A stretch of DNA of 64,000 bases. Source: Candidatus Obscuribacteraceae bacterium. GTDB taxonomy: Bacteria > Cyanobacteriota > Vampirovibrionia > Obscuribacterales > Obscuribacteraceae. Position numbers and translations under genes: made by a program. A model generated the notes under the pieces. The model saw only the letters and a list, made by a program, of their open reading frames with translations, searched no databases and was not told the DNA's origin. The DNA is taken from positions 320,001 to 384,000 of the forward strand of contig JBGASG010000004.1 in assembly GCA_044229845.1 (NCBI GenBank), in the 5' to 3' direction. This document shows, piece after piece, positions 6,701 through 33,077 of the stretch (its first letter is position 1; every line of letters begins with the position of its first letter).

Positions 6701-7005
6701 TCTGTATCGTCTTCGAAAATAGCCGTGACCACTGACAATCCGAAGCTGGAATTAGAGCGGATGTGTTTGATCTTGGGCACGCCGCTGAGCGCGCTCTCGA
6801 TGGGAAACGTAATCTGGCGCTCGACTTCGTCGGTAGCCATGGTCTCCGGCTCAGTGATGATCTGCACCTGAACGTTGCTGCAGTCAGGGAACGAGTCGAT
6901 CGGAATGTTGAGAATCGACCAGATACCGGCGACTGACAGGATGACGAAGAAGCCGACGGTGACCAGCCGTTGTTGCAGGGCAAAAGCGATGATGCGATCG
7001 ATCAT
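3784..7005 (-). CDS. czcA: Heavy-metal efflux RND permease, CusA/CzcA family
   Basis: 1073 aa; IPIDSFPD, NLMTLGAVDFGVIVDAGVVMVEN, EGKMFHPLA, RLRPVLMTA, GAEVQRPLA. Confidence 0.93.
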   Translation of the reverse strand: MIDRIIAFALQQRLVTVGFFVILSVAGIWSILNIPIDSFPDCSNVQVQIITEPETMATDEVERQITFPIESALSGVPKIKHIRSNSSFGLSVVTAIFEDDTDPYFARELIQQRLLNQLDLPEGAPRPQLGPLVSSFSNVFAYYLTSDRHDLTELRTIQDWQVARRFRAVPGVGNVVSYGGFVKQYQVVVQPDRLKGYDLTLRDVVKALEANNSNAGGNFIEQGGEEIIIRGLGRIHNEKDIADIVLKSVNGTPVTIRQVAEVKIGPAFRRGSASMNGKGEAVTGVVMTRKGVNTKAVVDQVEAKLRDIESELPEGVKIYPYYNQTELVDKTIDTVKEILMFSGGMVVIVLFAFLLDIPSALIVSVIIPLSLLFSFILMKFTGLSANLMTLGAVDFGVIVDAGVVMVENIFRQVAHARSKLSSDASGDLPGVARGIGQKIDILPIVTQAAQEVGRPIVFAIFIIVSVYIPLFTLEGIEGKMFHPLALTFIYAILGALLVSLTLIPVLCFWMFRGRNIEEKHNPILDAVVRVYTPALKSAIQHPKRTLVVSLGALLVSFCLIPFLGSEFIPTLDEGSILLRTKLSPSVSHTESRRIISHVEEIVKEFPEVTVVVSKIGRSGMGSDLEGVDNADIYIGLKPNSEWRTTHNKEELVNRMAAQLDKVPGLIYSFSQPIADMIDDLVAGIKADLGIKVFGDDLEKIDAIAAKIQGIVRGVRGSADMQREQILGLPQMNISLKRDVIARYGLNVSDVQEIINTAIAGRVVSDVLEGTQRFGISVRYPAEYRDSEEDIEAILVATPSGARVPLKHLADIQIKRGTVMVNREDGQRRTAVLANVRGRDLGGFVAEAQERVSKEVQLPRGYRVVWGGTFENQMRAMQRLAVVVPIVLLLIFVLLFASFNSLRNASLIMLNVPFAMIGGFVGLFITHQTISVPAIIGFIALFGVAVQNGVIMVTYITQLQRRGMNVVDAATDGAMTRLRPVLMTATVAIMGLLPKIISGGTGAEVQRPLAIVVLGGLVSATALTLLVLPAVYAWINKPPANGQPGGVGKEEEYEEHTRLTGEYRLSDLQSPGLQ

Positions 7006-7017
7006 TTGATTGTCGCC

Positions 7018-8451
7018 TTACTGCCTGGATGCCTGCTGGTAGGTGAGTTCCGATTTGAGGAGCAAACTGCCCTGTGTCGCTACCTTTTCACCAGCGGCAA
7101 GACCAGCCGTCACTTCGTAAAACTTCTCAGTGTCACTGCCCAGCGTCAGACTCCTCTCGACGAAACCATCCGGCGTCTGCACATAAACGACTCTTTTGCC
7201 GTCCCGCTCCTGCACTGCCGTCTTTGGAACAGCCAGCAAGAGCTTGGGCTGCCCTTTCAGATCGATTTGAGCGAACATGTTGGTTTTGAACTTGTGCAAT
7301 TTGTTATCGAGACGGGCTCTGATAGCCACCGTGCGCGTTTCAGGGTTGACGTTTTCACTGATGAAGCTGACGTAGCCCTGGAATTTTTCACCGGGATAGC
7401 TGGCTATGGTCACGGTCACCGGCGCGCCCAGCTGCACGCTCTGGACGTCGACTTCTGGAATATCGGCGTTGACTACTACCTCACTGAGATCTGTAATCGT
7501 GAAGGCATGTTTGCCGGGTCCGATGATTTCGCCGGCTGCCACATCGAAGTGCGTGACCACTCCCTGCCCGGTCGACACGAGCGGCACAACACCCATGACC
7601 TCATTTGTATCAAGCACGTTCTGCACCATTGCCGGTGTCATTCCGATAAATTTCAAGCGCTGCTTGAGCGTCGCCATCTGTTGTTTGGCGCGGGCAGTCT
7701 CAGCCTGAGCCAGCTGCAGGTCGCGCTTCAGCATGGCTTTGTTTTTGTACAACGCTTTCTCGCGCTGCAGTTCGGCAGTCGCCTGGCTGAATGCCAACTT
7801 GGCTTTAGCCAGTTCGGCCTGCGCTTCCATGAAATTCTTCTGTGAAGTAATCTTTTCGCGATAAAGTCCTTGCTGGCGGGAAAACTCGGCCTGCGACAGT
7901 TCCAGTTGCACTTTCGTTTCATCGTGGCGCGTTTGAGCCGCAATCAACGAGGGTGGGCGCTGCAAATATTCACTGTAAATCTGTTTCTCGCGCTCTTCGT
8001 GAGCCAACGCAATTACCAATTTTGACTTGGCTTCCAGAAGTTCGGCCTGCAGGTCACTATTTTCCTGGCTGTCCACTGTAGCCAGAACCTGCCCCGCCTT
8101 CACATGCTGACCGAGCACCACGTTTACCTTGACCACGCGACCTGAAAAGCGCGCGGTGACGTCTCTTTCCTTCGTAATCTCGGCGCGAATCTGTCCTGTA
8201 ACGTGCAGATTATTAGACAGCAGGCGCTTTTCTACCGCCTCTGTCTGCAAATCTATACGTTTGGCGAAGTCAGGCGTGATGCGGATCAGGTGCACATCCG
8301 GGGATTTATGCGTGGGCGCGGCTTCCACGGTATCGTTGCCCGCCGGCGACGTGGCAGTTTGAGTCGAGCACCCAGAAAGGGCAAAAAGGCTGATTAGCGC
8401 GGCGCCGAGCCCGGCAACGGCGCAGGTAGCAATAGTAGGAACACTCTTCAT
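7018..8451 (-). CDS. RND efflux periplasmic adaptor (CzcB/CusB-like) lipoprotein
   Basis: Lipobox-like ALSGC, lipoyl half-motifs (GQHVKAGQVL), long coiled coil, ETRTVAIRA; directly upstream of czcA. Confidence 0.9.
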   Translation of the reverse strand: MKSVPTIATCAVAGLGAALISLFALSGCSTQTATSPAGNDTVEAAPTHKSPDVHLIRITPDFAKRIDLQTEAVEKRLLSNNLHVTGQIRAEITKERDVTARFSGRVVKVNVVLGQHVKAGQVLATVDSQENSDLQAELLEAKSKLVIALAHEEREKQIYSEYLQRPPSLIAAQTRHDETKVQLELSQAEFSRQQGLYREKITSQKNFMEAQAELAKAKLAFSQATAELQREKALYKNKAMLKRDLQLAQAETARAKQQMATLKQRLKFIGMTPAMVQNVLDTNEVMGVVPLVSTGQGVVTHFDVAAGEIIGPGKHAFTITDLSEVVVNADIPEVDVQSVQLGAPVTVTIASYPGEKFQGYVSFISENVNPETRTVAIRARLDNKLHKFKTNMFAQIDLKGQPKLLLAVPKTAVQERDGKRVVYVQTPDGFVERSLTLGSDTEKFYEVTAGLAAGEKVATQGSLLLKSELTYQQASRQ

Positions 8452-17193: not shown

Positions 17194-17796
17194 ATGGACA
17201 TGAATCACATGGACCACATGCATCATCATATGCATGACATGGCCTTCACCCTTCCCGAGTGGCTGCTCTACAGCCTGGGCGCCTTCTTCCTCGCCGGCAC
17301 CGTCTTCTACCTCATGCGCCTGATCAACGGTCGCAAGCTGCAGGCGGTGAACGGCTACTTCGACCCCGAGAACGAAGCGTGGCACATGATCTGCCTCGCC
17401 GGCATGGCTGCAATGCTCGCTCCCATCGCGCTGCAGCCGCCCGTTCTGATCTGGCAGATCCTCTTCCTCGTAGGCGCCGGCTGGTACGCCATCCGCGCCC
17501 GCACCTGGGGCAAGACGATCAAGTACAACAAGCAGTGGTACGACTGGGCGCACTGCGGCATGCTTTTCGGCATGTGGTGGATGTTCGCCTCGCCGATCAC
17601 CGGCACCATCCCTATGGTGCTCAACATCGCCTTCTGGACCTGGTTCTCGGGCTACTACGTCTACCAGACGTTGACTGACCTGCGCGCCAAGCCCACCTTC
17701 TGGTCGCTCGGTCAGGACATCGCGCATCTTTCGATGGGCCTCGTCATGATCGGCATGACCGCCTGGCCGCACGCCTGGATGACGATGGCGATGTAG
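17194..17796 (+). CDS. Multi-TM membrane protein with a His/Met-rich N-terminus (DUF5134-like)
   Basis: MDMNHMDHMHHHMHDM; repeated H-x-x-(M/C)-x-x-GM motifs in TM helices (WHMICLAGM, AHCGMLFGM, AHLSMGLVM); GAGGA RBS. Confidence 0.75.
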   Translation: MDMNHMDHMHHHMHDMAFTLPEWLLYSLGAFFLAGTVFYLMRLINGRKLQAVNGYFDPENEAWHMICLAGMAAMLAPIALQPPVLIWQILFLVGAGWYAIRARTWGKTIKYNKQWYDWAHCGMLFGMWWMFASPITGTIPMVLNIAFWTWFSGYYVYQTLTDLRAKPTFWSLGQDIAHLSMGLVMIGMTAWPHAWMTMAM

Positions 17797-20359: not shown

Positions 20360-20863
20360 ATGAGCGAGGAGCTTGCCATCTTACTGCCGATTGCCCTTTT
20401 GGCGCTGGTTGTCGGCGGTTATTTACTGACGGTCTTCGAGCCGTACTACGCCTTGCGCACCAGCGAAGGCGCGGAGTTGCTCGAATATCACCGCCAGGAT
20501 CCGAAGCTGCGCGCCATTGCCGCGTGGTGGGCGCAGCGCCTCGTCGACCCCGGCAGTCGCTGGCTCGACGAAAGCAATGCGTCGGTTGTGCGCGTGCGCA
20601 ACAGCGTGCTGGAAGCGCTGGTCCGCCACCGTTTCCTGACGGGCGACGATCCGTCCAAACTGCGGTACGGTGCGAAGGTTTCGCCGGTGCTGCAGCGCGC
20701 TTTTGCGGAATGCGGGCTGGTGCCTCCGGCATCCGCCGTCACACCGCGGGTCGAGATGCAGATCTCGGCGCGCGAAGTGCGGGTCATGAACGGTGAGTTG
20801 GTCTGGAGAGGCAGACCAGCTGAGTACAAGTCGCGCTTCTGCGACTTCTACCCCGAACCCTGA
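20360..20863 (+). CDS. Hypothetical protein with an N-terminal TM helix
   Basis: 167 aa ORF 28 bp after copA; hydrophobic N-terminus. Confidence 0.6.
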   Translation: MSEELAILLPIALLALVVGGYLLTVFEPYYALRTSEGAELLEYHRQDPKLRAIAAWWAQRLVDPGSRWLDESNASVVRVRNSVLEALVRHRFLTGDDPSKLRYGAKVSPVLQRAFAECGLVPPASAVTPRVEMQISAREVRVMNGELVWRGRPAEYKSRFCDFYPEP

Positions 20864-20878
20864 GCCCGTCGCCCACTC

Positions 20879-20920
20879 AAGAAGAAGCAGGGACCCCTCG
20901 CCCTGCTTCTTCTTTTTTTT
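20879..20920 (+). terminator. Intrinsic terminator between convergent operons
   Basis: 14-bp stem AAGAAGAAGCAGGG / CCCTGCTTCTTCTT followed by a T run. Confidence 0.85.
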
Positions 20921-20938: not shown

Positions 20939-22273
20939 TCATGCGTCTAAACGCGGGTACTTTGCGGTCAGTGTAAGCCCCTCGCGCTGCTTCGGCAGAA
21001 ACGGCACCGCGAGCAAGCAGGCGGCAGTGAACACGGCTGACAGCACGGCGAGTGGTTGAATCATCCCGTGCGCCAGGGAAGTGAACACGTTGGCGCCGAT
21101 AATCGCGCCCAGCTGGGACCCTATGTTGTACACCGCAATCACCAATCCAATCGTCGTCGCAGTGGCGCGCTTCGGGCAGACATCGGCAGCGTACCCATAG
21201 ATAGTCAGGATTGCCACCATGTTGGTCAGTCCGCGCGCAAATTCAAGAACACTCGCACTTAATCCGTCGTTGCACAGCAAGTAGCCGAGATTGGAAGCCA
21301 CACCGGCAAGGACGGCGATCACTGCTTGCCGCCGATGGTCCGGTTGCACCAGCGCCAGCAGCCTAAAGACGCCGGCTCCGCACAGCATTCCGAATGAATT
21401 GATTGCTGCCAGCTGCCCAATGAAACCCTGATCGAATTTGAGATGCTGCGTGAAGTAGAAGTACAGCGGGGTTCCGAAGCTCGGGCTGAGGTTCCACAGG
21501 AACGTGAACGCAGCCACTCCCTGAAATTTTCGCGATCGCACGGTGGCAAAAATCACGCGCGCGTAGTTGCGCAGGCTCTGGCGGGACGCCACCGTCGTTT
21601 CTTCAAGGCGCAGACTGAAGAGAAACACCGCGGCGGTGATCACTGAACACAAGAACGCGGCACCGCGCAACGCATCGACGGGATGGAACTTCTGGCAAAG
21701 ATAGCCGCCCAATAATCCGGATCCGATGCTGGCGGCATAATAAGCACCCGCCTGCAACGCAAACAGCTTGCGTCCCCGCGCCGGCTGACGATGGGATTCG
21801 GCGGCGACCAGGGCACACAGCACGACCGTCGATAGCGCCATTGCCGTCGAGGTGATAGTCAAGGAAATCAATGTGACTATCATGTGGTGGTGGTCTTGCG
21901 TCAGAAGTGACGCCATAGCGAGAAATCCGAGCGACGCCGTGACTGCGGCAAGCAAGAGGTACGAACGCCTGCGCGTTCCCCACAAGGGCAGGAAGTCGCT
22001 CACGATGCCGAAGACGGGTTTGACGATCCACGGAATCATCAATATCGAGAGGAACCAAGCCACCTGGGCCGCGTTGTACTCTTCGTTCTTGAGCAAGAAA
22101 TACTCAAGCGGCTGCGCGATCAGACAGAAGTGCTGCGCAACGCCCTGTCCGAAATAGGCTGCCACCAGATATAGCGGCAAATATGCCGCCGACTGAGCGC
22201 CTGCAGGCTGAGCGTCTACCGCTGAGCGACCGGCGGCTTGCGCGCTAGGAAGTTGACTTCCGTGGATTGCCAT
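20939..22273 (-). CDS. MFS transporter, BT1 (folate/biopterin) family-like
   Basis: About 12 TM; signature PWIVKPVFGIVSDFLPLWGTRRRSY; PSFGTPLYFY. Confidence 0.8.
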   Translation of the reverse strand: MAIHGSQLPSAQAAGRSAVDAQPAGAQSAAYLPLYLVAAYFGQGVAQHFCLIAQPLEYFLLKNEEYNAAQVAWFLSILMIPWIVKPVFGIVSDFLPLWGTRRRSYLLLAAVTASLGFLAMASLLTQDHHHMIVTLISLTITSTAMALSTVVLCALVAAESHRQPARGRKLFALQAGAYYAASIGSGLLGGYLCQKFHPVDALRGAAFLCSVITAAVFLFSLRLEETTVASRQSLRNYARVIFATVRSRKFQGVAAFTFLWNLSPSFGTPLYFYFTQHLKFDQGFIGQLAAINSFGMLCGAGVFRLLALVQPDHRRQAVIAVLAGVASNLGYLLCNDGLSASVLEFARGLTNMVAILTIYGYAADVCPKRATATTIGLVIAVYNIGSQLGAIIGANVFTSLAHGMIQPLAVLSAVFTAACLLAVPFLPKQREGLTLTAKYPRLDA

Positions 22274-24111
22274 AATACATCTTGTCCATCAAGCTCGATT
22301 CGCTCGCGATAGGGAGCGGTTTCGAGCACTTCGATACTCCAATTTCGGAAAACTCCTTCCAATAACTCGACTGCTTGAGTTGCCGTCAGCGGGGTCTCCA
22401 CCTTAGTTTCCACAGGCTCGCCGGTGACGGCGTCCGCAACATTGCGTCCAGTGGAGGTTGTAATCAACACGCGTCCGCCGGCTCTGGTTGCGCCTGCGAT
22501 CTGCGACAGCAGACGGCGCAGCGTCGGCATTGAGCCAACGTGCTCGATAGCGGATACAGCCAAGATCAAATCAAATGAATCGGCTTCCAACGCGAATTCT
22601 TCCATCTCACTGCATATCGCGAGGACCCGCTCGCTCACCCCATGCCGGCTTGCATATGCCGTCAGTTTCTCGATTGCCGACGGCAGAATATCCACGGCGG
22701 TAACGTGCGCGCCACAGCGTTTTGTCAATTCAATAGTGTTGCGCCCGACGCCGCATCCGAGATCCAGCACTCGCGATTCCGCTGTGAGACCGGCTGCCAG
22801 TGCCGGCAAACGCGGATCAGATTGAGCCAGCCATGAACCAGGTGCATACAATTCGTGTCGCCCGTAGTACTGTTCATGGTAATCGCGGGTGCGCTCGCGG
22901 GCGGCGTTGAGCGCCGAGCGCTCACGCAGATCGGCGGCGACGGTATGGACAATGGCGCCCGTTATGTTAGCCGGATAGCCATAGATTTTGATGACGGAAT
23001 TGGTTTCGCCCGGCAACGGATTGCCAGCGGCAACCGACGGCTGCACGTATTGCATGGTGAAGACATCGAAGAAGGAGCGCGTTTCTTCATTCCAACCGTA
23101 CAGCGGCAAGAAACTGTGAAATGCAAAACCCATCTCCCGCAGCCGCTCCGTCAGTGCCGGACAGATGCTGCTGTTAGCTGGAATGCGCACTGCGATGAAA
23201 CGCTTCTTCAAGGAAAGCAATTCTCTGACTGCGTTCTCGACCTGCGCCACATCGCTGCCGGTCAGCTGCTCGGGGCAAATCACATAGCCGTGCTCATAGC
23301 CGTCATTGCGCTGAACAACCAGTTGGGCGAGAGTGAGGCTCTGGGCTCCGGGTTCCGCTTTGGCTTCGGGCTTAGCGTCTCCGCTGTCCGCAAAGTGATA
23401 TGCGAGAAGTGGCTCGAACTGTTTGGCTATTCGCCGACAAATCGCGTCATAGCGCGGAGCGACGAAGACTGTGCGTTTCTCTTTAATGCTCCGCAAGAGG
23501 CGAGCAACCTCGGTGTCTCTCTTTGGCTGTTCGGCAAGCGCTTCTCCGTAGGCGCGCCAGGTCCACAGCACCGACTCGGGGCGGTCGGCGAAAAACACGT
23601 TGGGATAGTGGCTGTATCCAAATCCGCAAAAAGCCCCATACCCATCGGCGACGTGAGCAGCCTGGGAAGCCAGGCTATGCGTCACCAGCTCGGTGCAATT
23701 GATCATCAAGTCTTGCCGCGACAGGTAAGCCGACACGCCGCGCATGAGCAGACTGCCGATGCCGCGTCCTCGCAGGTCGCGTCGCACCGCCATGCAGTTG
23801 TTTTCGATCTGGTAAGGTCCCAGAACATCCAGAGTGATAGCACCAGCCACGATACCGGTCGCGACAGCTTCTACCAGGACAAGAATACGTCCTGCCGCCA
23901 GATTCTCCGCCATGCTGGGCACGTCAAAGAGCGACGGATCGGGATAAGGCTCGCAGCCGGGCGCGCCGACACCGCCTGCACCGAGCGCGGCTTCGAACAT
24001 CTCAACCAGCGGCTGTGCGTCCGCGGCGAGCGCCAGACGCGCCAAGTATTCACCATCGGTAACCAACGTCTCAGCAGTGGAAACAGCTGCGCAAGCATTA
24101 CTTGACGACAT
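22216..24111 (-). CDS. GNAT acetyltransferase / class I SAM methyltransferase fusion
   Basis: Acetyl-CoA motif VRRDLRGRGIGSLL; SAM motif VLDLGCGVGRN, AVDI, SFDLI; ATG at 24111 behind AGGAG. Confidence 0.8.
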   Translation of the reverse strand: MSSSNACAAVSTAETLVTDGEYLARLALAADAQPLVEMFEAALGAGGVGAPGCEPYPDPSLFDVPSMAENLAAGRILVLVEAVATGIVAGAITLDVLGPYQIENNCMAVRRDLRGRGIGSLLMRGVSAYLSRQDLMINCTELVTHSLASQAAHVADGYGAFCGFGYSHYPNVFFADRPESVLWTWRAYGEALAEQPKRDTEVARLLRSIKEKRTVFVAPRYDAICRRIAKQFEPLLAYHFADSGDAKPEAKAEPGAQSLTLAQLVVQRNDGYEHGYVICPEQLTGSDVAQVENAVRELLSLKKRFIAVRIPANSSICPALTERLREMGFAFHSFLPLYGWNEETRSFFDVFTMQYVQPSVAAGNPLPGETNSVIKIYGYPANITGAIVHTVAADLRERSALNAARERTRDYHEQYYGRHELYAPGSWLAQSDPRLPALAAGLTAESRVLDLGCGVGRNTIELTKRCGAHVTAVDILPSAIEKLTAYASRHGVSERVLAICSEMEEFALEADSFDLILAVSAIEHVGSMPTLRRLLSQIAGATRAGGRVLITTSTGRNVADAVTGEPVETKVETPLTATQAVELLEGVFRNWSIEVLETAPYRERIELDGQDVLWQSTEVNFLARKPPVAQR

Positions 24112-25681
24112 AAGAGAACTCCTGCTTCGTTTTGATTTTGCCGGCGGCATCATCCGCCAAGATCTGCTGCGCACAGTTGTATCCGGGCGCTCCATTGACG
24201 TTGCCGGCAGGATACGTGCCTGCACCGCAGACATAGAGCGCGGGGATTTGTGTGCGATGTCCGGAGGCACCGCTGAAATTGCGCTTGTCTGCAAGAAACT
24301 GCGGCGCCATCGGCAGGTGCCAGCAACTGGCTCCAGACAGGCGAAACTGATTGCGCAATTCTGTAGGTCCGACGGCTGCGGCTTCGACGACGCACTCGCG
24401 GATATCGCTTGCATGCGCACTTAGATCAGTCAAAACCTTCTCCACCAGCGCCTCGGCAGAGATGTCGCCGGCGCCAGGCAGGTAGTGAATATCGACGGTC
24501 AAAAGATGTTTGCCGACAGGAGCGATGGTATCGTCCATGGTGGAGGGAAAGCACATCGTCATCATCAATTGAGATGGCATGGCACCGGCGTGCACGCGCT
24601 TCGCATCCTCAATAATCGACTCTAAGGGCGGAGCCACGACAATAACACCTTGATAGTTATGTTGCAGCTCGTCGAGCACAGCGAATCGGGGCAGGCGGCT
24701 GAGCGCCAGGTGCACCTTGCCCGCGGAGACAGTGGGCACTTCCGTCTGCAGTCGTTCGCGCAGCTGAGCGCCGGTGCCGGCAGCGAGGCTCTCCCCGTCC
24801 AAGAGGCGCCCAAAGGTCTGCCACGGATCGGCATTGGAGATCACGCAATCGAATTCCATTAAGGCGCCGCTTTCAGTCAGAATGCCGGTGGCGCGACCGT
24901 TTTTGGTCAGCGCTTTCTCAATCGGGCAGTCCAACATGATCTGGGCACCGGCAGCCAGCGCTGCTTGAGTCATGGCTTCGGTAATCGCGCCCATGCCGCC
25001 CTTGACGAAGCCCCAGGCGCCCGGCTGCCCGGCTGTGACAGCAGTGCCGTGATGAATGCAACCGAATATGGTGCCGGGAAGGTTTGAAAAACCAGGTGTG
25101 CAGGTAGACGCGGCGGCTTTGAACGCCGGATTCTCCACATACTCGCCGAGCAAGTCGAGCAGCGAACGCTCGAACAGCCCATCTGCGATAGTCGGCAATC
25201 CGGCTGCCCTCAGCGCCTCTTGCAGTTCTTTCTGACCGACAGGTGGACGCATGTAGAACGGGCTGAGCACGGCTGCCGCGCGCGCGATGTCGCCCCAGAA
25301 CGCCGACCAGCCTTGCACGTCGGCATCGGTCAATCCATTTATTCTGTATCTGGAGCCGCCGCCTTCACGCGGCGTATAAGAATACTGCCCGTCAGGCAAG
25401 AGCACGATCTCTATGGGATCGGCGAGGTACGTCTGCAGTCCCCAGGTTTCCAATTCAAGATCCCGCGCGATTTCTTCACGCAGCATGCCGTAATAGGACG
25501 CAACGGTGGATACGCGAAATCCGGTGAAGAGCTCCTCGGTGACGCAAAGACCGCCGGTCTTCGAACGGGCTTCGAACAGAGTCACCTCGTGCCCTGCAGA
25601 GGCCAGGTAAAACGCGCAAACGAGCCCATTATGGCCCGCTCCGATGATGGCTATTTGCAGTGGTTTGGTGTCGGCGTTCAC
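24098..25681 (-). CDS. FAD-dependent oxidoreductase, phytoene desaturase/PYROXD2-like
   Basis: IIGAGHNGL...EAR..TGG Rossmann motif, GGMGAIT, LYVCGAGTYPAGNVNGAPGYNCA. Confidence 0.85.
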   Translation of the reverse strand: MNADTKPLQIAIIGAGHNGLVCAFYLASAGHEVTLFEARSKTGGLCVTEELFTGFRVSTVASYYGMLREEIARDLELETWGLQTYLADPIEIVLLPDGQYSYTPREGGGSRYRINGLTDADVQGWSAFWGDIARAAAVLSPFYMRPPVGQKELQEALRAAGLPTIADGLFERSLLDLLGEYVENPAFKAAASTCTPGFSNLPGTIFGCIHHGTAVTAGQPGAWGFVKGGMGAITEAMTQAALAAGAQIMLDCPIEKALTKNGRATGILTESGALMEFDCVISNADPWQTFGRLLDGESLAAGTGAQLRERLQTEVPTVSAGKVHLALSRLPRFAVLDELQHNYQGVIVVAPPLESIIEDAKRVHAGAMPSQLMMTMCFPSTMDDTIAPVGKHLLTVDIHYLPGAGDISAEALVEKVLTDLSAHASDIRECVVEAAAVGPTELRNQFRLSGASCWHLPMAPQFLADKRNFSGASGHRTQIPALYVCGAGTYPAGNVNGAPGYNCAQQILADDAAGKIKTKQEFSYVVK

Positions 25682-25700
25682 GGTTGGTCGATTGGCGTTC

Positions 25701-26936
25701 CTATAACTCGCTTTGCAAGACCTCGATCAGGCGGTCGATTTCATCGCGGCTGTTGTAGACATGCAGGCTAATACGCAGGAAATCATCCGCTTCAGCGCTT
25801 TTTCCTTTGCACAAATTTCCGGAGCGCACCATAATGTTCTCGCTGTCCAACAAGAACGCGACATCGGCTGATTCCGCTTGCTGAAAGCGAAATGCCAGAA
25901 TGCCGTAACCGCCAGGGCAGCCGCAGATGCCTGGTCCGGGAGCGAACTCAATTCCGGGCATCCCGACTAATTGGTCATACAGATACTTTGTCAGTGAAGA
26001 AACATGCGCTTCGATATGTTCGACACCGATGCTCTGGATGAAGGAAACGGCTTCGCCCAGTCCGAGAATAGCCGGCGTGTCGTAAGTGCCCGCTTCACAG
26101 ATCTCTGCAAAGGTTCCATTGAACGAAACCTCCAGCGCGGCGCCATCGCCTTCTGAAATCACGCATTGGGTGCCGCCGCCGATGCGCACCGGTTTCATCT
26201 CCCGCTGCCGATTCCGGCGCGCCCAGAGAGCGCCGACACCGGTCGGTCCAAACATCTTATGTCCGGAGAACGAAATGAAATCGACGGGCAATTCGGAGAC
26301 TTTGACGGCAGTGTGTCCGATGCTCTGGCTGGCATCCAGACTGATAACGACCGCATCTCCGACAATGTCGCGCACCTCCTGGACCTCCATCTCCAGTCCG
26401 TACACGTGGTGCACGTGCGTCATCGCCAGCACGCGTGTGCGCTCGCTTACGCCTGAGCGAATGCTCTTCAGGTCGTAGTCGCCGACTTCGTGGATGGCGA
26501 AGGGCACGACTTTGACATGCTTGCCGAATTGCTTCAGCGTCTGCACCAGAGTGAGCCAGGGCAAAGTCGCGCTGCGGTGGTCGTCCAGACACAACATGAT
26601 TTCGTCGCCGTCATTGAGGTTGAGCAATCCCCATGACAGAGCAACGAGATTGAGGCTATCGGTGGCACCGCCGGTGAAGGCAATGTCAGCGGCATCCGCG
26701 CCGAGCAATTCAGCGACCGCTCCCCGCACCCGCTCAATACCGGCGCGGGCACGCGTCGAGAGACCGGAGACTCCGCGTCCAGCGTTGGCGCATTCGCTTT
26801 CGTAGAAACGCACCATGGTTTCCACAACCCTCGCCGGCTTCTGCGTTGTCGCGGCGTTGTCAAAGAAGATCGTTCCCGGTCGAGACACGAACGCCGGAAA
26901 CTGGCAACGCACATCCGTCTCTAAGACAGTTACCAT
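25701..26936 (-). CDS. Class V PLP enzyme, SufS-like cysteine desulfurase
   Basis: FDNAATTQKP, DASQ, SGHKMFGPTG (PLP Lys), EAGT, RSGNLC (Cys at the RxGxxC position). Confidence 0.85.
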   Translation of the reverse strand: MVTVLETDVRCQFPAFVSRPGTIFFDNAATTQKPARVVETMVRFYESECANAGRGVSGLSTRARAGIERVRGAVAELLGADAADIAFTGGATDSLNLVALSWGLLNLNDGDEIMLCLDDHRSATLPWLTLVQTLKQFGKHVKVVPFAIHEVGDYDLKSIRSGVSERTRVLAMTHVHHVYGLEMEVQEVRDIVGDAVVISLDASQSIGHTAVKVSELPVDFISFSGHKMFGPTGVGALWARRNRQREMKPVRIGGGTQCVISEGDGAALEVSFNGTFAEICEAGTYDTPAILGLGEAVSFIQSIGVEHIEAHVSSLTKYLYDQLVGMPGIEFAPGPGICGCPGGYGILAFRFQQAESADVAFLLDSENIMVRSGNLCKGKSAEADDFLRISLHVYNSRDEIDRLIEVLQSEL

Positions 26937-28282
26937 TACTTGACTCCAGCCAGTTGCTTGCCGGCGGCGACGCCGCGTTCACAGGGCTTGCCCGCATCAC
27001 GCCACTCGACAAATCCGCCAATCAAGCTAGCGCACTCAATTCCCTTTGCCCCGAAAAACGCGGCGAAACGGCGCGATTGATCGCCTGTCGGGCAGACAAA
27101 GAGAACGCGGTGCGACTTGGAAAACGGCACACCGTTTTCCGCCATGTCAGCGAGCGTCTCGGTTGCGATATTGATCGAATTGGGGATGTGCGAGGCTTTG
27201 AACGCCAGCGCACCACGCATATCGACAATCATTGGGGCATCGCCACGCTGCAGCCAATCTTGAGCTTGCTCGACATTGACTTGCACAGCTTGCTCGATTT
27301 GCTCATCGGAGAGATCGCGCACGCTTTCTTTTTTGGCAGCCATGCCGAACAGCTCGGGACGGCACTTTTGCAGATAGGATAGATACCACTCGACGCGATC
27401 GCAAACGATAAATACGGCATTTTGCTTTTCAGTCAGCGTCTCGTCAATGCCGCGCAGATATTTAAGAGCCGCCGCCAGACTGCCGCCGCCCGTTGGACCT
27501 GCGAGCACACCGGCGCGACGAATGAGCAGAAGCATTGCATCGATAGATTCATCGATATCGACTTCAACAATGTCGTCGTAGAAGTCTTTGCGGAAGAGAC
27601 CGACTTCATACATTTCATCGACGTTGCGGATGCCGGGCAGCAAATGCCCCTTGGAGGCAATCACGCCGATATTCTTGACGCCCGGGTTCTTTTCTTTAAG
27701 GAGCGAGCCTGTGCCGCGGGTGGAACCGGTCGTTCCCAGCCCACCAATGAAAAAGTCGACGCGGTCGAGATCTTCCATGATCTCTTTGCCGGTGGTGTTG
27801 AAGTGCGCTTCGATATTGCGCTCATTCGTGTACTGCGACGTGTGGAAATACTTGCCGGGCTCGCCCAACATGATTTGTTCGATAAACGTGATCGGGTCAT
27901 TGGGATCAGTCGGGTCGGGGCATTCGCTGAGCCCCGGCAGCTCGTCCACTTCGGCGCCCAGCAGTTGCAGAATCTGTTTTACCTCACGCACCTTAATTCG
28001 GTTGGTGACGATCTTGAACGGCACCCCGTGCAGCGAACACAATATCTGCATGGCTTTGGCCATGTTGCCGCTGGACGACTCGATGACCGTCTTGCCTTCG
28101 GCGGCAATGCTTTCGATGTCGTGACGCAGCACGTTCCACGCGCTCTTGTCCTTGACCGACCCAAACGGGTTGAGCAATTCGAGCTTGGCGTAGAGATTGA
28201 TGTTCTTCAGCCCGTGCAGCTCGGCGGGCAGCTCGAGCAAAGGCGTGTTACCGATGACTTCGGTGATGTTGGAAACGAGCAT
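26936..28282 (-). CDS. PLP-dependent cysteine synthase family protein fused to a C-terminal rhodanese
   Basis: IGNTPL, NPFGSVKD (PLP Lys), ESSSGN, GLGTTGS; rhodanese IVDMR...HIPNSINI...CPTGDQS...GGFVEW. Confidence 0.88.
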   Translation of the reverse strand: MLVSNITEVIGNTPLLELPAELHGLKNINLYAKLELLNPFGSVKDKSAWNVLRHDIESIAAEGKTVIESSSGNMAKAMQILCSLHGVPFKIVTNRIKVREVKQILQLLGAEVDELPGLSECPDPTDPNDPITFIEQIMLGEPGKYFHTSQYTNERNIEAHFNTTGKEIMEDLDRVDFFIGGLGTTGSTRGTGSLLKEKNPGVKNIGVIASKGHLLPGIRNVDEMYEVGLFRKDFYDDIVEVDIDESIDAMLLLIRRAGVLAGPTGGGSLAAALKYLRGIDETLTEKQNAVFIVCDRVEWYLSYLQKCRPELFGMAAKKESVRDLSDEQIEQAVQVNVEQAQDWLQRGDAPMIVDMRGALAFKASHIPNSINIATETLADMAENGVPFSKSHRVLFVCPTGDQSRRFAAFFGAKGIECASLIGGFVEWRDAGKPCERGVAAGKQLAGVK

Positions 28283-28285
28283 TGT

Positions 28286-29803
28286 TTATTGTTCTCCCGT
28301 TTTGGTTTCCCAGAGGGGCCAGTACTTTTCGTCGGCACACCAGCGAAACTGGCTACCGCGCTGGCTCAGCGCCACTTTTTTGGCAACCGGCTGCATGATC
28401 GATTCGCTGGCGCTGAAGTCCATGAAGTAACCGGCAGTGTTGAGAAACACAACCAGATCTCCCGGTTTTGGCAGCTTCCGCAAGTATGTCTTGTGTCGAT
28501 AAATGAGATCGCTTTCCAGGCAAAGGTTGCCCGAGAAGTAGACAGCGACTGGTTCTTCATCGGCGCCAGCCGGTTCTTGCTGATAGATGATCACCGGGTC
28601 TACAAAGATTTCCTGGTCAAGAAACGAGATGTCTTGCCGCTTCATGCGCAGCGAAACCAGCGTGTCCCCATTGCTGGAATCGCGCACAGAGAGAACCTCG
28701 GCGACGGTTAAGCCGACCTGGTCGAGAAGCGCGCGCCCCGGTTCTATCCAGAGCGCAATCATGTTGTCGCGAAGAAACTCCGCAGCAGTGACATCAGGAT
28801 TGTCGGGAAGCGGCTGCCGCAACATGTCGACGAGAAACGCCGGGCCGGTCGTGCCGTCGAAATAGTTGTAGCTGTTGAAGTTTCCTCGCAGCTTGCCCTG
28901 TTCGACATACATGCCGAAAGTGTTGCCCTGCCAGGCGAGCGTCGGACGCTGACCGAGCACTCCTTCTTTCAAGGCACTGGTGTAGGCATTCCACTCATTC
29001 TCGTCAGCCAGATAATTGACTTTGTAGCCGCCGCCGATGTTCAAAACACTGGGCTCGAAGCCGCGCGCCACCGCTTCTTCGAAGAGCTGCACGCAGTTTT
29101 CAATGGCGATCATGCGCTCTGGAACGCTCACCGTATCCAGGTGGAACGAGAAGCCCAGGAAGCGCAATTGCTCGCCGGACTCGGTCAATATGTCGAACGC
29201 CTCGCCCACCTTATCAATGCTGATGCCGAAGCGGCTGCCTTTGTTGAGGAAACGGGTGTGTGACGAGCGAAACCCGCAGAGTCTCAGCAAAATTGGCGTG
29301 CTCGGAGCCTGAGGCAATGACTTGCGCAGCGTGAGCAAGAGCTTAAGCTCTTCGATGCTGTCGATAGAAACTGTCACGCCGTGCTGGATGCATACAAAAA
29401 GAAACTCCGGAGTCTTCGGTCCGGTCGCTTCAATGCGCTTACCTTCGAATCCGGAAGCGAGGGCATGCCCGAGCTCATTCACCGAAGAAACATCAATGCA
29501 GGCATCGGATGAAAGCGCCAGCTGCCTGACGACGGAATCCGAGCGGTTGCATTTGTGCGCGAAGAACACGCGCCCCTGCAGTTGCAGTTTCTTGAATGCG
29601 TCCTTGAAGCCCTGGACATTCGCAGTCACCAACTCGGGCAGCAAGACATTGAGCGGGCTGCCCAGCGCGCCGGTCAATTCGGTGAGCAACCGGCGATTGT
29701 CGAGCACAGCGCTGACACCAGGGACAACCCTGGCAGTCAGCGGCAATGCCGACTGCTTTGCCGCTTCTTCTGTCGCGACGCACTTTTCGTCCAACAAAGT
29801 CAT
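28286..29803 (-). CDS. Fold-type III PLP decarboxylase (LysA-like, Y4yA/SbnH-type)
   Basis: FAHKCN (PLP Lys), SRFG, FHL, NIGGGY, EPGR, GNLCLESD, NTAGY. Confidence 0.85.
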   Translation of the reverse strand: MTLLDEKCVATEEAAKQSALPLTARVVPGVSAVLDNRRLLTELTGALGSPLNVLLPELVTANVQGFKDAFKKLQLQGRVFFAHKCNRSDSVVRQLALSSDACIDVSSVNELGHALASGFEGKRIEATGPKTPEFLFVCIQHGVTVSIDSIEELKLLLTLRKSLPQAPSTPILLRLCGFRSSHTRFLNKGSRFGISIDKVGEAFDILTESGEQLRFLGFSFHLDTVSVPERMIAIENCVQLFEEAVARGFEPSVLNIGGGYKVNYLADENEWNAYTSALKEGVLGQRPTLAWQGNTFGMYVEQGKLRGNFNSYNYFDGTTGPAFLVDMLRQPLPDNPDVTAAEFLRDNMIALWIEPGRALLDQVGLTVAEVLSVRDSSNGDTLVSLRMKRQDISFLDQEIFVDPVIIYQQEPAGADEEPVAVYFSGNLCLESDLIYRHKTYLRKLPKPGDLVVFLNTAGYFMDFSASESIMQPVAKKVALSQRGSQFRWCADEKYWPLWETKTGEQ

Positions 29804-29814
29804 TGCGCTTCTCC

Positions 29815-30807
29815 TTAGACGGTCACGAGGTTTGCCGACGATGCCTGCATGATGGCTTTGTCGAGCGCCACCGCGTAGGAAAACTCGGCATCGAGGTCGG
29901 CATCGAGAGCGGTGCCGTAGTAGTCGTTGTACCAGTCGGCGCAGACCTTAGAGTGCGTAGTCTGCAAGAGCTCGAGATACTGATCCCAATCGCGCGTGCG
30001 CTCCGTCAAGATTTGCAGGCACTTCTCGAAAGCCTGTTCTTGCTCTTTGTGGAAGCGCTCCAGCGCCGCGCTGTCACCCTGCTCGAAATGCTTGAGATGT
30101 TTGGAGTTCGGAATGTATCCGATGACGCGATCGGCTGGTACATGCGACTCGATAAACGCTTTATCTTCCTCGCTGTCGACCTTGTTACCGATGACATAAA
30201 CGCGGTCAGCCAGTTGCGGAGCGATGGAAAGAAAGTCCTGGTAGACCTTCAAAGATTTCAAAGTCGGCTCGACAACAAAAACGTTGAGGTCATAGGCGAA
30301 CGAGAGCGAAGTCGCGACGTTGTCGGTACCGGCTGTCGTGTCGGCCACCACCATGTCGGTCGGACGATCGAGCATGTGGTGCATGATCGCCGCCAATCCG
30401 CGCAGCTTGGTGTGATAACAGGAGCCGCCGACGTCGGATTCTTTATATGTACCGACGGTGAGAAGCGAGATGTTGCCGCTGCGCAGCGCGTATTGCGACA
30501 CGAACGGATCGCGCTCGCTGACCATCACAAAATTCGATTGCATCGAAGGGGGAGTCGTACCTACCATGGGGCGCTCGCCCAGGTCGGCGCGCTGCCCGCG
30601 CAGATGTTCGAAAATCTGTTCGCAGACCTCGCCCAGTTCTTGCTTCTCGCCGACCACGTCGCTCAGGCTGAGAGCGCTCAACAAATGTGCATTAACGTCG
30701 GCGTCAATCGCCAACACAAACGGGAAGCGCGCCGCGACGAACTTCACGAACCCGGCAGCAGTAGTGGTTTTTCCGGCGCCACCTTTTCCCAAAAACGCAA
30801 CTCTCAT
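29815..30807 (-). CDS. CooC-like SIMIBI P-loop ATPase
   Basis: GKGGAGKTT deviant Walker A, IDAD, DTTAG switch II, VVEPT, GNK. Confidence 0.8.
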   Translation of the reverse strand: MRVAFLGKGGAGKTTTAAGFVKFVAARFPFVLAIDADVNAHLLSALSLSDVVGEKQELGEVCEQIFEHLRGQRADLGERPMVGTTPPSMQSNFVMVSERDPFVSQYALRSGNISLLTVGTYKESDVGGSCYHTKLRGLAAIMHHMLDRPTDMVVADTTAGTDNVATSLSFAYDLNVFVVEPTLKSLKVYQDFLSIAPQLADRVYVIGNKVDSEEDKAFIESHVPADRVIGYIPNSKHLKHFEQGDSAALERFHKEQEQAFEKCLQILTERTRDWDQYLELLQTTHSKVCADWYNDYYGTALDADLDAEFSYAVALDKAIMQASSANLVTV

Positions 30808-30822
30808 GTTTCCTCCGAATCT

Positions 30823-32187
30823 CTATGGATGACTGTGCAAAACTGAAAACCACGGCAGCAGCACTGCATCAGTAAAGTGATACGAGGCGCGCGGTTTCAA
30901 AATGGTGTGGGGATTTTCTTTTATGTGTTTGTAGATGCCGTGGTGGCAGGCAAGAATTGCCTGTCCGCTGTCGTACGTTTCTTTCTGAACAGCGCCGGAC
31001 AGATACTCCGGTAGGGGCACCACCGGGATGTTGAGAATTGCCGACCGCGCCCGCAGAATGGGACGCAAAGCGGCATCCAAGCGTGACGCTCGTTCTGGCT
31101 CGGCAAGAAACGAGGACAGATGCGACATCAACTCAAATGCCAGGGCAGGCGTCGGCTTCTCGCGCTCGACAAACTCCGCCATCCGCTCCTGGAAGGAGCT
31201 TTCGGTCAATGACCAGGTTTCGTTCTGGCAGAAGTGGAGCGCATTCCAGAGCCAGCAGGATGTGAGGCGGTGATTGCCGTCGGACACGGTGTCGTATTCA
31301 TTTATGACAATCGGAGCAAACTTTGTCTGCCCGAGATTGAGCAGCTCTTCGAAAAGCCGGGTGTTCTCGCAGCGCTCAGTGAGCTGGATTTCTTTCAGGC
31401 GGCGCGAGAGCACGGTGACGAAGTTGCCATCAAACCAGGAAGCAAAGATCGAATCGCGTTGTTGTTGCATGGCCGAGAACGAAAGAAAGGCATCGATTTC
31501 GAACGCGGCCGCAGCCAACACATCGCGGCGGGTGAGCGCCGGAATCAGACTGACCAGCGAACGCAGTTGCGCAACGTGCAGATCAAATTGCCGCCCCTCG
31601 ACCGGCGCCGCATCCCAGCTGACGCGCACCAGATTTAAAGTCTCCAGTAATTTTTCCGCAGTGCCGGACACGCGAGCCGACCGCATAGACTGAACAATCG
31701 CATCGATCTGCTCTGCCCACTGCTGCGCACAGGAAACTTCGGCTTCGCTTGCGGGAAGGCATTGCGCTTCGACTTCGCACAATTCGGGAGCCGGCGCGTG
31801 GGTCCATGGCCAGCTCGCAGCCAAGTCGGACGAACAGCTGCCGGACAAGAGGACAGCCTGGCTCCAGCGAAATCGCGCGTCGCGCATCGCCATCGATTGC
31901 GCGAAAAATGAGGCACCGCGATCGCGGCTGATCGACTTGCGTCCGGGCGCGGGCACATATCGTCCCGGATAGATACCGGGAGGTTCAGCGCCTGCGACCA
32001 GCGCCTGCACACGTGCCTGAGCAAGCGAGTGAAGATCGCGCACGGTGCGTTTAAAAGAAAAGCCGCCATGAGCCAAGCGCCGCGGTCGAGCGATCTTGAC
32101 GCCTTTACGACGCTCATAATCGCCGACGTCGGGCCGCTGAAACCGGCGGTGTAGACGGTCAGGCACAGTGCTGGGGGTAGCTGTCAT
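30823..32187 (-). CDS. Hypothetical protein with a ParB/sulfiredoxin-like motif
   Basis: PIVINEYDTVSDGNHRL resembles the ParB/Srx P-I-x-V...DGxHR nucleotide-binding motif; first gene of the operon; start uncertain. Confidence 0.55.
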   Translation of the reverse strand: MTATPSTVPDRLHRRFQRPDVGDYERRKGVKIARPRRLAHGGFSFKRTVRDLHSLAQARVQALVAGAEPPGIYPGRYVPAPGRKSISRDRGASFFAQSMAMRDARFRWSQAVLLSGSCSSDLAASWPWTHAPAPELCEVEAQCLPASEAEVSCAQQWAEQIDAIVQSMRSARVSGTAEKLLETLNLVRVSWDAAPVEGRQFDLHVAQLRSLVSLIPALTRRDVLAAAAFEIDAFLSFSAMQQQRDSIFASWFDGNFVTVLSRRLKEIQLTERCENTRLFEELLNLGQTKFAPIVINEYDTVSDGNHRLTSCWLWNALHFCQNETWSLTESSFQERMAEFVEREKPTPALAFELMSHLSSFLAEPERASRLDAALRPILRARSAILNIPVVPLPEYLSGAVQKETYDSGQAILACHHGIYKHIKENPHTILKPRASYHFTDAVLLPWFSVLHSHP

Positions 32188-32207
32188 GCCCGCCAATTTA
32201 ACACGGA

Positions 32208-32226
32208 AATGAAAACCATTTTCATT
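32208..32226. promoter_or_regulatory. Fur-family (Fur/Zur/Nur-like) operator
   Basis: Perfect 8-3-8 inverted repeat AATGAAAA-CCA-TTTTCATT containing a 7-1-7 core TGAAAAC-C-ATTTTCA, about 20 bp upstream of the operon start. Confidence 0.7.
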
Positions 32227-32422
32227 CCTTGGAATTATCTAAATAGATCGCGGGAGGGGGCGGTCAGTTTATCCCCAGCCTCAGACTACGGGGAAGCTAT
32301 CCCCCCGGTGGGGTCCAGCCAAATCTGAATTGCCGGCAATACTTGCCGATGCCCAATCAATGAATATCCGGCTGCACTATTAGTGGTGGCAGCCAGTACA
32401 TCTGAGCTATAATTAAGGTGAG

Positions 32423-32761
32423 GTGAAGCGTGTGAGAGTTCCCAGACACCGCTGGCTGCCTATAGTCACGCTGCTTTTAGCGTGGCAGATACTGGCATGG
32501 CAACTTCCGCACTTCGCCAACTCCACTCCCAACTGCATCAAACAAATCCAGCAGCCGATTCTCACCGCCGCTGGACATGCAGCCTTTTCGCTGGCTGAAT
32601 CCAAGCCGAGCGACTTGAAAAACGGCGACGCCGGCAAATGGCTGGTCAGCAGCACTGCGGCATTCGCCCATCATCCGGAAATCGAGCATGTCTGTCATGC
32701 CGCCACTATCGCTTTCGGCATCACACGCATCTGGTTGATGCACCGCGCACTTCTGCTCTGA
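32423..32761 (+). CDS. Small protein with an N-terminal signal/TM segment and C-terminus RIWLMHRALLL (possible leader ORF)
   Basis: TATAAT at 32408-32413 and AAGGTGAGG just upstream; hydrophobic N-terminus. Confidence 0.5.
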   Translation: MKRVRVPRHRWLPIVTLLLAWQILAWQLPHFANSTPNCIKQIQQPILTAAGHAAFSLAESKPSDLKNGDAGKWLVSSTAAFAHHPEIEHVCHAATIAFGITRIWLMHRALLL

Positions 32762-32897
32762 CAACCGATACACGCAAGGTATCTGAAGGAATCCGAGACT
32801 ACACTTTGTTTGTGGCAGTTCCGGCGCCGCCATGCGCGGGCCGACGCAAGCAGCAAGGTGTGGCACCGCAGAGCAGCAGTGCAGACAGGAGCTGTCC

Positions 32898-33077
32898 ATG
32901 AGAAAACAGATGGCAAATCAAGGAAGAGCCACGTGGTTAGGCGTGGGCGCATTTCTGGTCATACTGTCCACGCTGTACTTCTTCACTCACGATGCGATCT
33001 TCAGCGGGGTGATTGGATTTGTGTTCGGCATCGGCATGTTCGATCTGACGCTTATCTTGAGCAACCCGGACTCCTGA
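32898..33077 (+). CDS. Small 2-TM membrane protein (59 aa)
   Basis: AGGAG RBS, two hydrophobic helices. Confidence 0.6.
   Translation: MRKQMANQGRATWLGVGAFLVILSTLYFFTHDAIFSGVIGFVFGIGMFDLTLILSNPDS

Follow-up and report, generated by a model that had tools for sequence, protein, structure and literature searches.

A conserved three-gene core in a probably Zur-controlled operon of an Obscuribacteraceae bacterium: a proposed route to a sulfur-containing zinc chelator

The aes enzymes, which make [S,S]-ethylenediaminedisuccinic acid (EDDS), are cysteine-synthase-like and diaminopimelate-decarboxylase-like proteins acting on phosphoserine. Their pathway is Zur-controlled according to the accessible text of two sources (PMC9252823, PMC7586795), and three more, in the parts available, name the aes genes or cluster without giving the enzyme make-up (PMC10702961, PMC8914351, PMC10486106). 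Aspergillomarasmine A (AMA) synthase and Fda4 of Fusarium poae add the amines of Asp or Ala to O-phosphoserine (OPS), and marasmins chelate metals (available part of PMC12751119). Here we analyze a stretch of 64,000 nucleotides (the window) from a Candidatus Obscuribacteraceae bacterium and, at its positions 20939 to 32228, an eight-gene operon with its upstream box. The first-pass annotation of this DNA had put the operon forward as a metal-regulated biosynthetic unit devoid of nonribosomal peptide synthetases (NRPS) and NRPS-independent siderophore (NIS) synthetases, a proposal that our comparison of loci supports, with conservation added. By analogy, the closest logic would be phosphoserine β-replacement combined with decarboxylation, as for AMA, EDDS and staphyloferrin B, the difference lying in a desulfurase and four conserved cysteines. 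We conclude that the operon represents a real, widely conserved biosynthetic module, probably under Zur control. As to its product, we lean modestly toward a sulfur-containing aminoethyl zinc chelator (a zincophore or a zinc/copper buffer), made by a Zur-repressed operon that is switched on under zinc shortage.

A scan of a genome collection with an alignment of the decarboxylase returned at least 572 relatives among the 600 stretches listed, and the best 80 loci were analyzed, genes being counted over 21-kb loci with our own gene caller; these scan loci and the named loci cited below may share genomes and are not independent sets. In 79 of the best 80, the decarboxylase gene is followed by that of a cysteine-synthase-like enzyme fused to a rhodanese (the synthase), with a class-V pyridoxal phosphate (PLP) gene in the same run, the single exception, L116, having the decarboxylase alone. 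Among these 80, the core-bearing loci belong to four lineages: Obscuribacterales, actinomycetes (Streptomyces, Kitasatospora, Micromonospora, Actinoplanes, Hoyosella), Clostridia and Micavibrio. Judged by gene content, the conserved unit is thus made of three genes, for the decarboxylase, the synthase-rhodanese and the desulfurase, the others varying by lineage, and the alternative of all eight genes as one conserved unit was rejected. The first-pass annotation had placed a CooC-like ATPase in the core together with these three; the three stood, and the ATPase did not. The 17 loci that we classed as Obscuribacterales-like contain the ATPase in 12 cases, orf1 in 12, a flavin adenine dinucleotide (FAD) enzyme in 13, a GNAT gene in 14, the window-type methyltransferase in 10, a Fur-family gene in 9, a 2-oxoglutarate-type hydroxylase in 9 and a BT1-type transporter of the major facilitator superfamily (MFS) in 5. 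At the 63 other loci, a different methyltransferase is found in 52, the ATPase in 6, an MFS gene in 5, an ATP-grasp gene in 4 and orf1 in none. The FAD oxidoreductase is confined to Obscuribacterales among the loci compared, and in an assembly of 0.9 Mb the core is accompanied only by the ATPase, a Fur-family gene and a methionyl-tRNA synthetase (MetRS) gene. The synthase was found in 71 of the 104 genomes of the window's uncultured family and in 15 of 401 genomes sampled from the actinomycete class, the centre genome included; none was found in 300 genomes sampled elsewhere in the phylum. Plasmid records gave two matches, neither annotated in the relevant stretch. Housekeeping roles for the three core proteins (LysA, CysK/CysM, SufS) were rejected: each protein falls below its family cut-off, and further class-V and CysK-like genes are present in the genome.

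The operon and its box comprise the following features, with coordinates given as positions within the window and transcription running from 32196 to 20939 on the minus strand.

32206..32228, no strand assigned: Zur-type operator palindrome GGAATGAAAATGGTTTTCATTTC, with core TGAAAATGGTTTTCA at 32224-32210
32195..32203, minus strand: possible extended -10 (TG-n-TAAATT) beside the box, seen by eye, a consensus scan giving no such call
30823..32196, minus strand: orf1, predicted SerK/SbnI-like protein (ParB/Srx fold), start at TTG 32196 or ATG 32187
29815..30807, minus strand: CooC-like (CbiA/ParA-like) ATPase, accessory and a possible metal chaperone, from a PDB match and invariant residues
28286..29803, minus strand: core gene 1, fold-III PLP decarboxylase (Orn_Arg_deC_N), from Pfam and invariant motifs
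26936..28282, minus strand: core gene 2, CysM-like PLP β-replacement enzyme fused to a rhodanese (PALP and Rhodanese), from Pfam, fold and residues
25701..26936, minus strand: core gene 3, SufS-type cysteine desulfurase (Aminotran_5; best model SufS), from family and residues
24098..25681, minus strand: CrtI/CrtO-like FAD oxidoreductase, putative tailoring enzyme, from NCBIfam
22216..24111, minus strand: GNAT-methyltransferase fusion of 631 aa, start at ATG 24111
20939..22273, minus strand: BT1-type MFS transporter, predicted exporter, from Pfam/NCBIfam

The first-pass annotation had read the palindrome at the start of the operon as a Fur-family site of unspecified metal. The site held: with a matrix derived from 19 sites of other genera, positions 32228-32206 score 30.3 bits, and sites above 24 bits number three in the window's genome and zero in three shuffled genomes. 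Its metal could be refined, since control of this locus by Zur (zinc) is very likely, and iron Fur was rejected as the regulator on the strength of the regulator's metal ligands and the content of the regulon. The two other strong boxes lie ahead of a tonB-zur pair and of a TonB-dependent receptor; the locus concerned (L056:8275-12241, C1:928274-932240 in the window's genome) encodes a TonB_C protein, Zur and a TonB-dependent receptor of 920 aa, and a box precedes both the TonB_C and the receptor gene. In relatives, the box precedes the receptor gene at all 24 loci scored (25 were taken, one being too short), heads 10 of the 11 non-copA operons among 16 further loci, and stands ahead of COG0523 genes in L047 and L147. 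The regulator carries His, His, Cys and His at the exact spacing of D77, H79, C95 and H115 of SynZur, in addition to four structural cysteines, and its top PDB match is 3mwm, which we take to be the Zur of Streptomyces coelicolor; 2o03 (FurB) and 7ne9, presumably Zur proteins too, also rank high. Its own gene is preceded by a box in the window's genome, a gene of its family lies inside many of the operons, and we infer that this regulator pairs with this box. His occupies SynZur position 77 in 11% of sequences (PMC9337993, in the part available). Outside Obscuribacterales, some loci are flanked by ZnuABC, COG0523 or L28/S14/L31 ribosomal proteins without CxxC, typical members of Zur regulons according to the accessible text of PMC6103462, and several actinomycete cores are flanked by solute-binding ABC systems.

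Further zinc- and metal-related features accompany the box or the core in other genomes. A gene for a VanX-like D-Ala-D-Ala peptidase adjoins the operon at L033:13291-14118, L147 and L148, with the same box upstream. Fifteen of the 63 non-Obscuribacterales loci (the actinomycete locus L108:14996-15295 and 14 more) encode a His/Asp/Cys-rich repeat protein of 99-114 aa, usually directly 3' of the core, and the same kind of protein, which belongs to no Pfam family, is found at L069:20330-20653 and L091:17645-17989; it is possibly a zinc store. Other genomes of the window's family (L034, L048-L055, L148) hold a second, distant cluster type with a long N-terminally extended PALP enzyme, a fold-III decarboxylase (27-30% identity), a short-chain dehydrogenase/reductase, a Cys/Met PLP lyase, two DAO-family oxidases, a MOSC protein, a ferredoxin and, in some cases, a weak NicO-like transporter or PepSY_TM. 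Several of these clusters have a different box, TTGAGAATNATTCTCAA, a motif that also marks a second fur-family gene. The cluster type is possibly a sibling pathway linked to iron or nickel.

In the synthase, K44, C121 and C397 are present in all 98 aligned rows and R219 in 97 of them; C121 and C397 are each kept in 30 of 31 distant representatives, and both in the 41 rows of a taxon-spanning alignment (here and below, 40 loci hand-picked to span taxa, plus the window). The PLP domain is nearest in sequence to CysM, including the PGIR motif with R219. By fold and domain architecture, the nearest relative is AMA synthase (8H4H/8H4Q, the top Foldseek match, E 1.6e-29, 23-24% identity), of which one entry was solved with OPS, so that the likeness to SbnA proposed earlier holds for the cysteine-synthase fold and not for the closest structural relative. 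The protein scores 159 bits with the CysM-type NCBIfam model (cut-off 413) and 155 bits with TIGR03945 (cut-off 350), and its database names are generic. AMA synthase keeps the Cys of the rhodanese loop and lacks that of the ECPDP loop, the equivalent of C121. Fungal AMA synthase is much nearer to a sister bacterial PALP-rhodanese family (P0072, P0077, P0083, P0101, P0111 and others; E 6e-82 to P0111) than to the window's synthase (E 4e-28), and a long branch with support 100 parts this sister family from the family of the window's synthase in a quick tree from which AMA synthase is absent. Going by these sequence comparisons, the window's synthase is outside the AMA synthase clade. Five family members (P0022, P0023, P0035, P0042 and P0045) have Trp at otherwise invariant Gly positions, which suggests hosts that read TGA as Gly.

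When the desulfurase is aligned with the solved SufS 5xt5, C376 falls on the Cys of the latter's RAGHHC motif, and K227, H120, R388 and C376 are found in 41 of 41 rows, as is an extra cysteine, C340, located in an inserted loop. With 297 bits against an NCBIfam SufS cut-off of 475, the protein is, by family scores and alignment, a distinct subfamily of the SufS group characterized by this C340. In one subgroup of loci the desulfurase is of the IscS/NifS type and its gene lies upstream; since the class of desulfurase is swapped and the catalytic Cys retained, sulfur mobilization appears to be the retained function of the core. The four conserved cysteines (C376 and C340 of the desulfurase, C397 and C121 of the synthase) suggest a persulfide relay, in line with the sulfur relay put forward earlier. 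A predicted complex between the rhodanese domain and a dimer of the desulfurase lends weak support to it: the score is 0.54 versus 0.00 for the best control, runs share at least 91% of contacts and the partner's predicted local distance difference test (pLDDT) is at least 86, in a calibration where the passing pairs were 116 of 157 solved complexes and 2 of 215 mismatches, only 18 of the former and both of the latter lying at or below 0.60. In anaerobic ergothioneine synthesis, a desulfurase with extra conserved cysteines relays persulfide to a small molecule, as described in the available portion of PMC9516567. In a Streptomyces locus (L135:15146-17840), the core is followed by a gene for a family 2A encapsulin shell and by a second, canonical SufS-type desulfurase.

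In the decarboxylase, K84, GGG257-259, EPG354-356 and C428 are invariant over 108 rows. The residue after the catalytic Cys is Leu, where LysA has Glu, which argues against a diaminopimelate-like substrate, and the score of 103 bits is so far below the LysA cut-off of 298 that the enzyme is not LysA.

The product of orf1 has no Pfam or NCBIfam match, and sequence, Atlas and Foldseek searches gave nothing usable (Foldseek E above 0.1). E274 and D306-GNHR are invariant in 11 of 11 rows, residues that presumably have equivalents in SbnI. The structural model (pLDDT 78) has as its two best fold matches SerK 5x0b (Z 6.9, root-mean-square deviation [rmsd] 3.2, 138 residues aligned) and SbnI 5ujd (Z 6.8, rmsd 3.2, 131 aligned), the third reaching only Z 4.4. 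This structure comparison favors the SbnI likeness suggested in the first pass, and we predict, with moderate confidence, that orf1 encodes a free-serine kinase supplying OPS. The ATPase has CooC 3kje as its sole PDB match (E 4e-18), and an invariant Cys130-Tyr-His132 replaces the CxC of CooC1, C130 and H132 being kept in 43 of 43 rows. We regard it as accessory because of its rarity outside Obscuribacterales, and as a possible metal chaperone.

We propose the following route. OPS would be supplied by orf1, as its fold suggests. Cysteine sulfur would be taken onto C376 of the desulfurase and passed, probably via C340, to C397 of the rhodanese. The PLP domain would form aminoacrylate from phosphoserine and add the relayed sulfur, yielding a β-thio-alanine in the form of a persulfide, a thioether or a protein-tethered disulfide, with C121 as a candidate last relay or resolving residue. 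The decarboxylase would then convert the β-thio-alanine adduct to a 2-aminoethylthio (cysteamine-type) unit, and lineage-specific methylation, acylation or oxidation, export by the MFS protein and re-uptake through Zur-controlled TonB/ABC systems would complete the pathway. Gene order, conservation, residues, and the box with its regulon are established directly; the chemical steps we infer.

A more elaborate version, which we consider tentative and rather unlikely, is that the core defines a widespread and hitherto undescribed class of zinc chelators assembled on a carrier protein: capture of the relayed sulfur by aminoacrylate would give a cysteine that is tethered and S-protected, its decarboxylation would give cysteamine, repeated AMA-like rounds would yield N,S-donor chelators, and one paralog would be paired with copper export. 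PLP-dependent decarboxylation of free cysteine is hindered by a thiazolidine trap, which tethering would avoid. If true, this version would amount to a de novo route to cysteamine that lies outside coenzyme A turnover and, as far as our literature search reaches, to the first metallophore pathway for Obscuribacterales.

Several points weigh against a secreted, sulfur-containing zinc chelator. On the regulatory side, a box of at least 18 bits lies within 4.5 kb upstream in only 27 of the best 80 loci, most Streptomyces loci having none, and zinc-regulon neighbors occur at just 18 of the 63 non-Obscuribacterales loci. ZnuA has no match in the window's genome. The TonB receptor, present in 82 of the 104 family genomes, occurs in some genomes without the core and was not found in some that bear it, so that over these 104 genomes its occurrence does not follow that of the operon. 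Neither orf1, absent from the 63 non-Obscuribacterales loci and of moderate fold similarity (Z below 8), nor the exporter, given the MFS counts of 5 in 63 and 5 in 17, is universal. The chemistry itself is a guess, as the conversion of Cys and phosphoserine to Ala and Cys would be futile unless an intermediate is diverted. Lastly, the fusion of a CysK-like enzyme to a rhodanese is not in itself a sign of sulfur chemistry, which weakens this part of the first-pass reading: AMA synthase and Fda4 have the fusion yet use amines, the rhodanese Cys is not diagnostic because AMA synthase keeps one alongside its amine nucleophile, and the sister family also keeps C121 and C397 (20 of 21 each).

A sulfur-free product is an alternative. 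Under identical zinc control, the operon might make an aminopolycarboxylate or ethylenediamine chelator similar to AMA, EDDS or the product of the Fusarium Fda4/Fda3 route: the amine of an amino acid, for example alanine released by the desulfurase, would be added to phosphoserine, the decarboxylase would generate the ethylenediamine unit, and sulfur chemistry would only activate or protect the enzymes. Both characterized CysK-rhodanese fusions that we found use amines, and Fda4 uses L-Ala with OPS, its fda cluster also containing an FAD oxidoreductase, an N-acetyltransferase and an MFS gene (accessible part of PMC12751119). We nevertheless judge a sulfur-free product improbable, considering that a desulfurase with an intact Cys accompanies the core in 79 of the best 80 loci and is in one subgroup swapped for another class of desulfurase, that alanine is not scarce and a dedicated source of it would be unexpected, that CysM resembles the sequence of the PLP domain more than AMA synthase does, and that the IucA and SbnB families are unmatched in the window's genome.

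The scarcity of exporters bears on a third possibility, that of a purely intracellular role in zinc sparing or buffering, either through a low-molecular-weight thiol or as a backup for a zinc-dependent step in the metabolism of sulfur or amino acids, with no secretion. It would fit the loci lacking an exporter, the 0.9-Mb assembly that retains the core with just the ATPase, the Fur-family gene and MetRS, the His-rich 99-aa protein that follows the core at 15 of 63 loci, the receptor that does not track the operon, and the frequency of backup enzymes in Zur regulons (PMC6103462, in the part available). We think this unlikely, because several tailoring enzymes and an MFS gene are present at this locus and its close relatives, the other strong boxes of the window's genome control the TonB receptor, and solute-binding ABC systems stand beside the core in several actinomycetes.

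The convergent flank with copA is also part of the picture and comprises the following features.

20879..20914, no strand assigned: bidirectional intrinsic-terminator-like hairpin, folding on both strands
20360..20863, plus strand: open reading frame (ORF) of 167 aa, with a homolog after the desulfurase in the copA-linked operon copy of locus L035
17983..20331, plus strand: Cu(I)-type P1B ATPase (copA), with the family motifs CPC, YN and MxxSS
17194..17796, plus strand: DUF5134 His/Met-rich membrane protein, recurrent neighbor of the core, from Pfam and neighborhood comparison

The hairpin folds on both strands (z -5.2 and -3.8; none of 200 shuffles equal). It had been described as a terminator shared with the convergent copA unit, and the hairpin stands, the gene that reaches it being the 167-aa ORF 3' of copA and not copA itself. 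At eight loci, the core is directly preceded by a co-oriented Cu(I)-type ATPase gene, in most cases accompanied by DUF5134; the copA-linked clade is sister to the clade with the window's genus (SH-aLRT 99 in a quick tree of 59 rows), and both versions of the operon lie side by side in several genomes (L029, L146/L147, L148/L149). Given this paralogous clade and the homolog of the 167-aa ORF in L035 (44% identity, E 1e-43), the window's unit of DUF5134, copA and the 167-aa ORF resembles what would remain of a copA-linked copy after loss of the core. In Streptomyces L104, L107 and L124, the ATPase near the core is of the P1B-4 type (SPC, HEGST) instead of the Cu(I) type.

This linkage raises the possibility of copper detoxification, in which the core, acting together with CopA and DUF5134, would produce a thiol or sulfide as a sink for Cu(I). 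In the quick tree, the eight copA-linked copies group into a single clade with two others whose context is not visible (SH-aLRT 99); one copA copy has a divergently oriented metal-sensor repressor gene (Trns_repr_metal), and no box was seen at three of five newly compared copA copies, the other two having an upstream box shared with a divergent peptidase gene and possibly belonging to that gene. The window's copy, for its part, sits in the boxed clade and has a box, and a search for CsoR operators upstream of the copA units found no CsoR-type palindrome. In addition, the zinc metallophore staphylopine is reported to bring in copper (PMC10653882, in the text available), and copper imported by a metallophore would equally explain why the core is paired with copA. 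We consider a mainly copper-detoxifying role very improbable.

The eight genes lie on the minus strand in the order and with the small gaps and overlaps described earlier, as ORF calls and a check of the junctions confirm, and Pfam/NCBIfam agree with seven of the eight family assignments, that of orf1 (ParB/Srx type) being backed by its SerK/SbnI fold matches. The first five junctions, from orf1 through the FAD gene, have gaps of 15, 11, 3, -1 and 19 bp; the FAD and GNAT genes overlap by 14 bp with the GNAT start at ATG 24111, and the GNAT-methyltransferase and MFS genes by 58 bp. Judged by this spacing, all eight genes are probably co-transcribed; RNA data from two runs placed few short contigs on the operon, too little to show transcription or co-transcription. 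The extended -10 sits 7 nt ahead of ATG 32187, and the orf1 mRNA is possibly leaderless. For the GNAT-methyltransferase gene, the longest ORF, starting at 24420, was rejected as giving the true start, ATG 24111 being taken instead. An assembly error was likewise rejected as the origin of the fusion, since a contig of another run crosses the junction with 11 differences. The fusion is seen in the window's genus only. Other relatives have separate genes, and since zur, a second ATPase gene and another methyltransferase gene often lie between the two, a deletion probably created the fusion. In relatives, the BT1-type MFS gene is found close to the cluster and is often transcribed divergently from the box. 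Divergent from the box in the window (32423-33077, plus strand), two small ORFs without Pfam match precede a CPA2/Kef antiporter. The first ORF, rich in His toward its end, shares 90% identity with its counterpart in the sister genome and may, at a guess, be a metal-sensing leader. Farther away (3784-8328, minus strand), ORFs of 1073 and 436 aa resemble, from their sequence, a heavy-metal resistance-nodulation-division efflux pump and its adaptor.

In a limited search of the open-access literature we found no description of a core made of decarboxylase, synthase-rhodanese and desulfurase, although one may exist in subscription journals, MIBiG, supplements or tables of Zur regulons; the accessible portions of PMC11356490, PMC13559783 and PMC12161575 do not mention it. 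Few zinc chelators are known, and those that we traced use opine, NRPS or amine β-replacement chemistry. If our proposal is true, a persulfide relay, phosphoserine β-replacement and decarboxylation gathered in a three-enzyme core would constitute a new biosynthetic logic. Cultured Streptomyces, Micromonospora and Hoyosella bear the core, making it directly testable, and the Zur box and regulon defined here for Obscuribacterales should be useful in mining their genomes.

Compared with known systems, the operon shares with the staphyloferrin B cluster (sbnA-I) a putative SbnI-like kinase fold, an SbnA-fold synthase (TIGR03945), an SbnH-fold decarboxylase (E 3e-18 to 6knh, which we take to be SbnH) and an MFS gene, and it differs in having Zur-type instead of iron-Fur control and in the presence of a desulfurase and a rhodanese. 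The IucA/IucC and OCD (SbnB) families, which the first-pass annotation had noted as missing, have no match in the operon or in the 88%-complete genome, so this is not a staphyloferrin B or NIS cluster. The CysM-type sulfhydrylases (E. coli CysM, M. tuberculosis CysM/CysO) provide the best sequence matches of the PLP domain, with PGIR and R219, and in the CysO route sulfur is delivered by a protein; the window's enzyme, in contrast, is below the family cut-off, fused to a rhodanese, under zinc control and associated with a dedicated desulfurase and decarboxylase. In the relays of anaerobic ergothioneine synthesis (EanB, MES), a desulfurase with an extra Cys also passes sulfur to a small molecule (PMC9516567, in part), but the acceptor enzyme and the substrate are different, and neither PLP β-replacement nor decarboxylation is involved. 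AMA synthase and Fda4 have the same architecture, a PLP β-replacement enzyme with a C-terminal rhodanese, whereas both use amine nucleophiles and AMA synthase groups with a separate sister family and lacks the Cys of the ECPDP loop; the accessible source text mentions no desulfurase or decarboxylase partner for them. With the EDDS (aes, Amycolatopsis japonicum) and related EDHA clusters, the aes genes being compared by description alone, the operon shares the logic of a Zur-repressed zincophore pathway independent of NRPS and NIS. To our knowledge the aes pathway has no desulfurase or rhodanese relay, whereas the window-type core has a desulfurase as its third gene in 79 of the best 80 loci.

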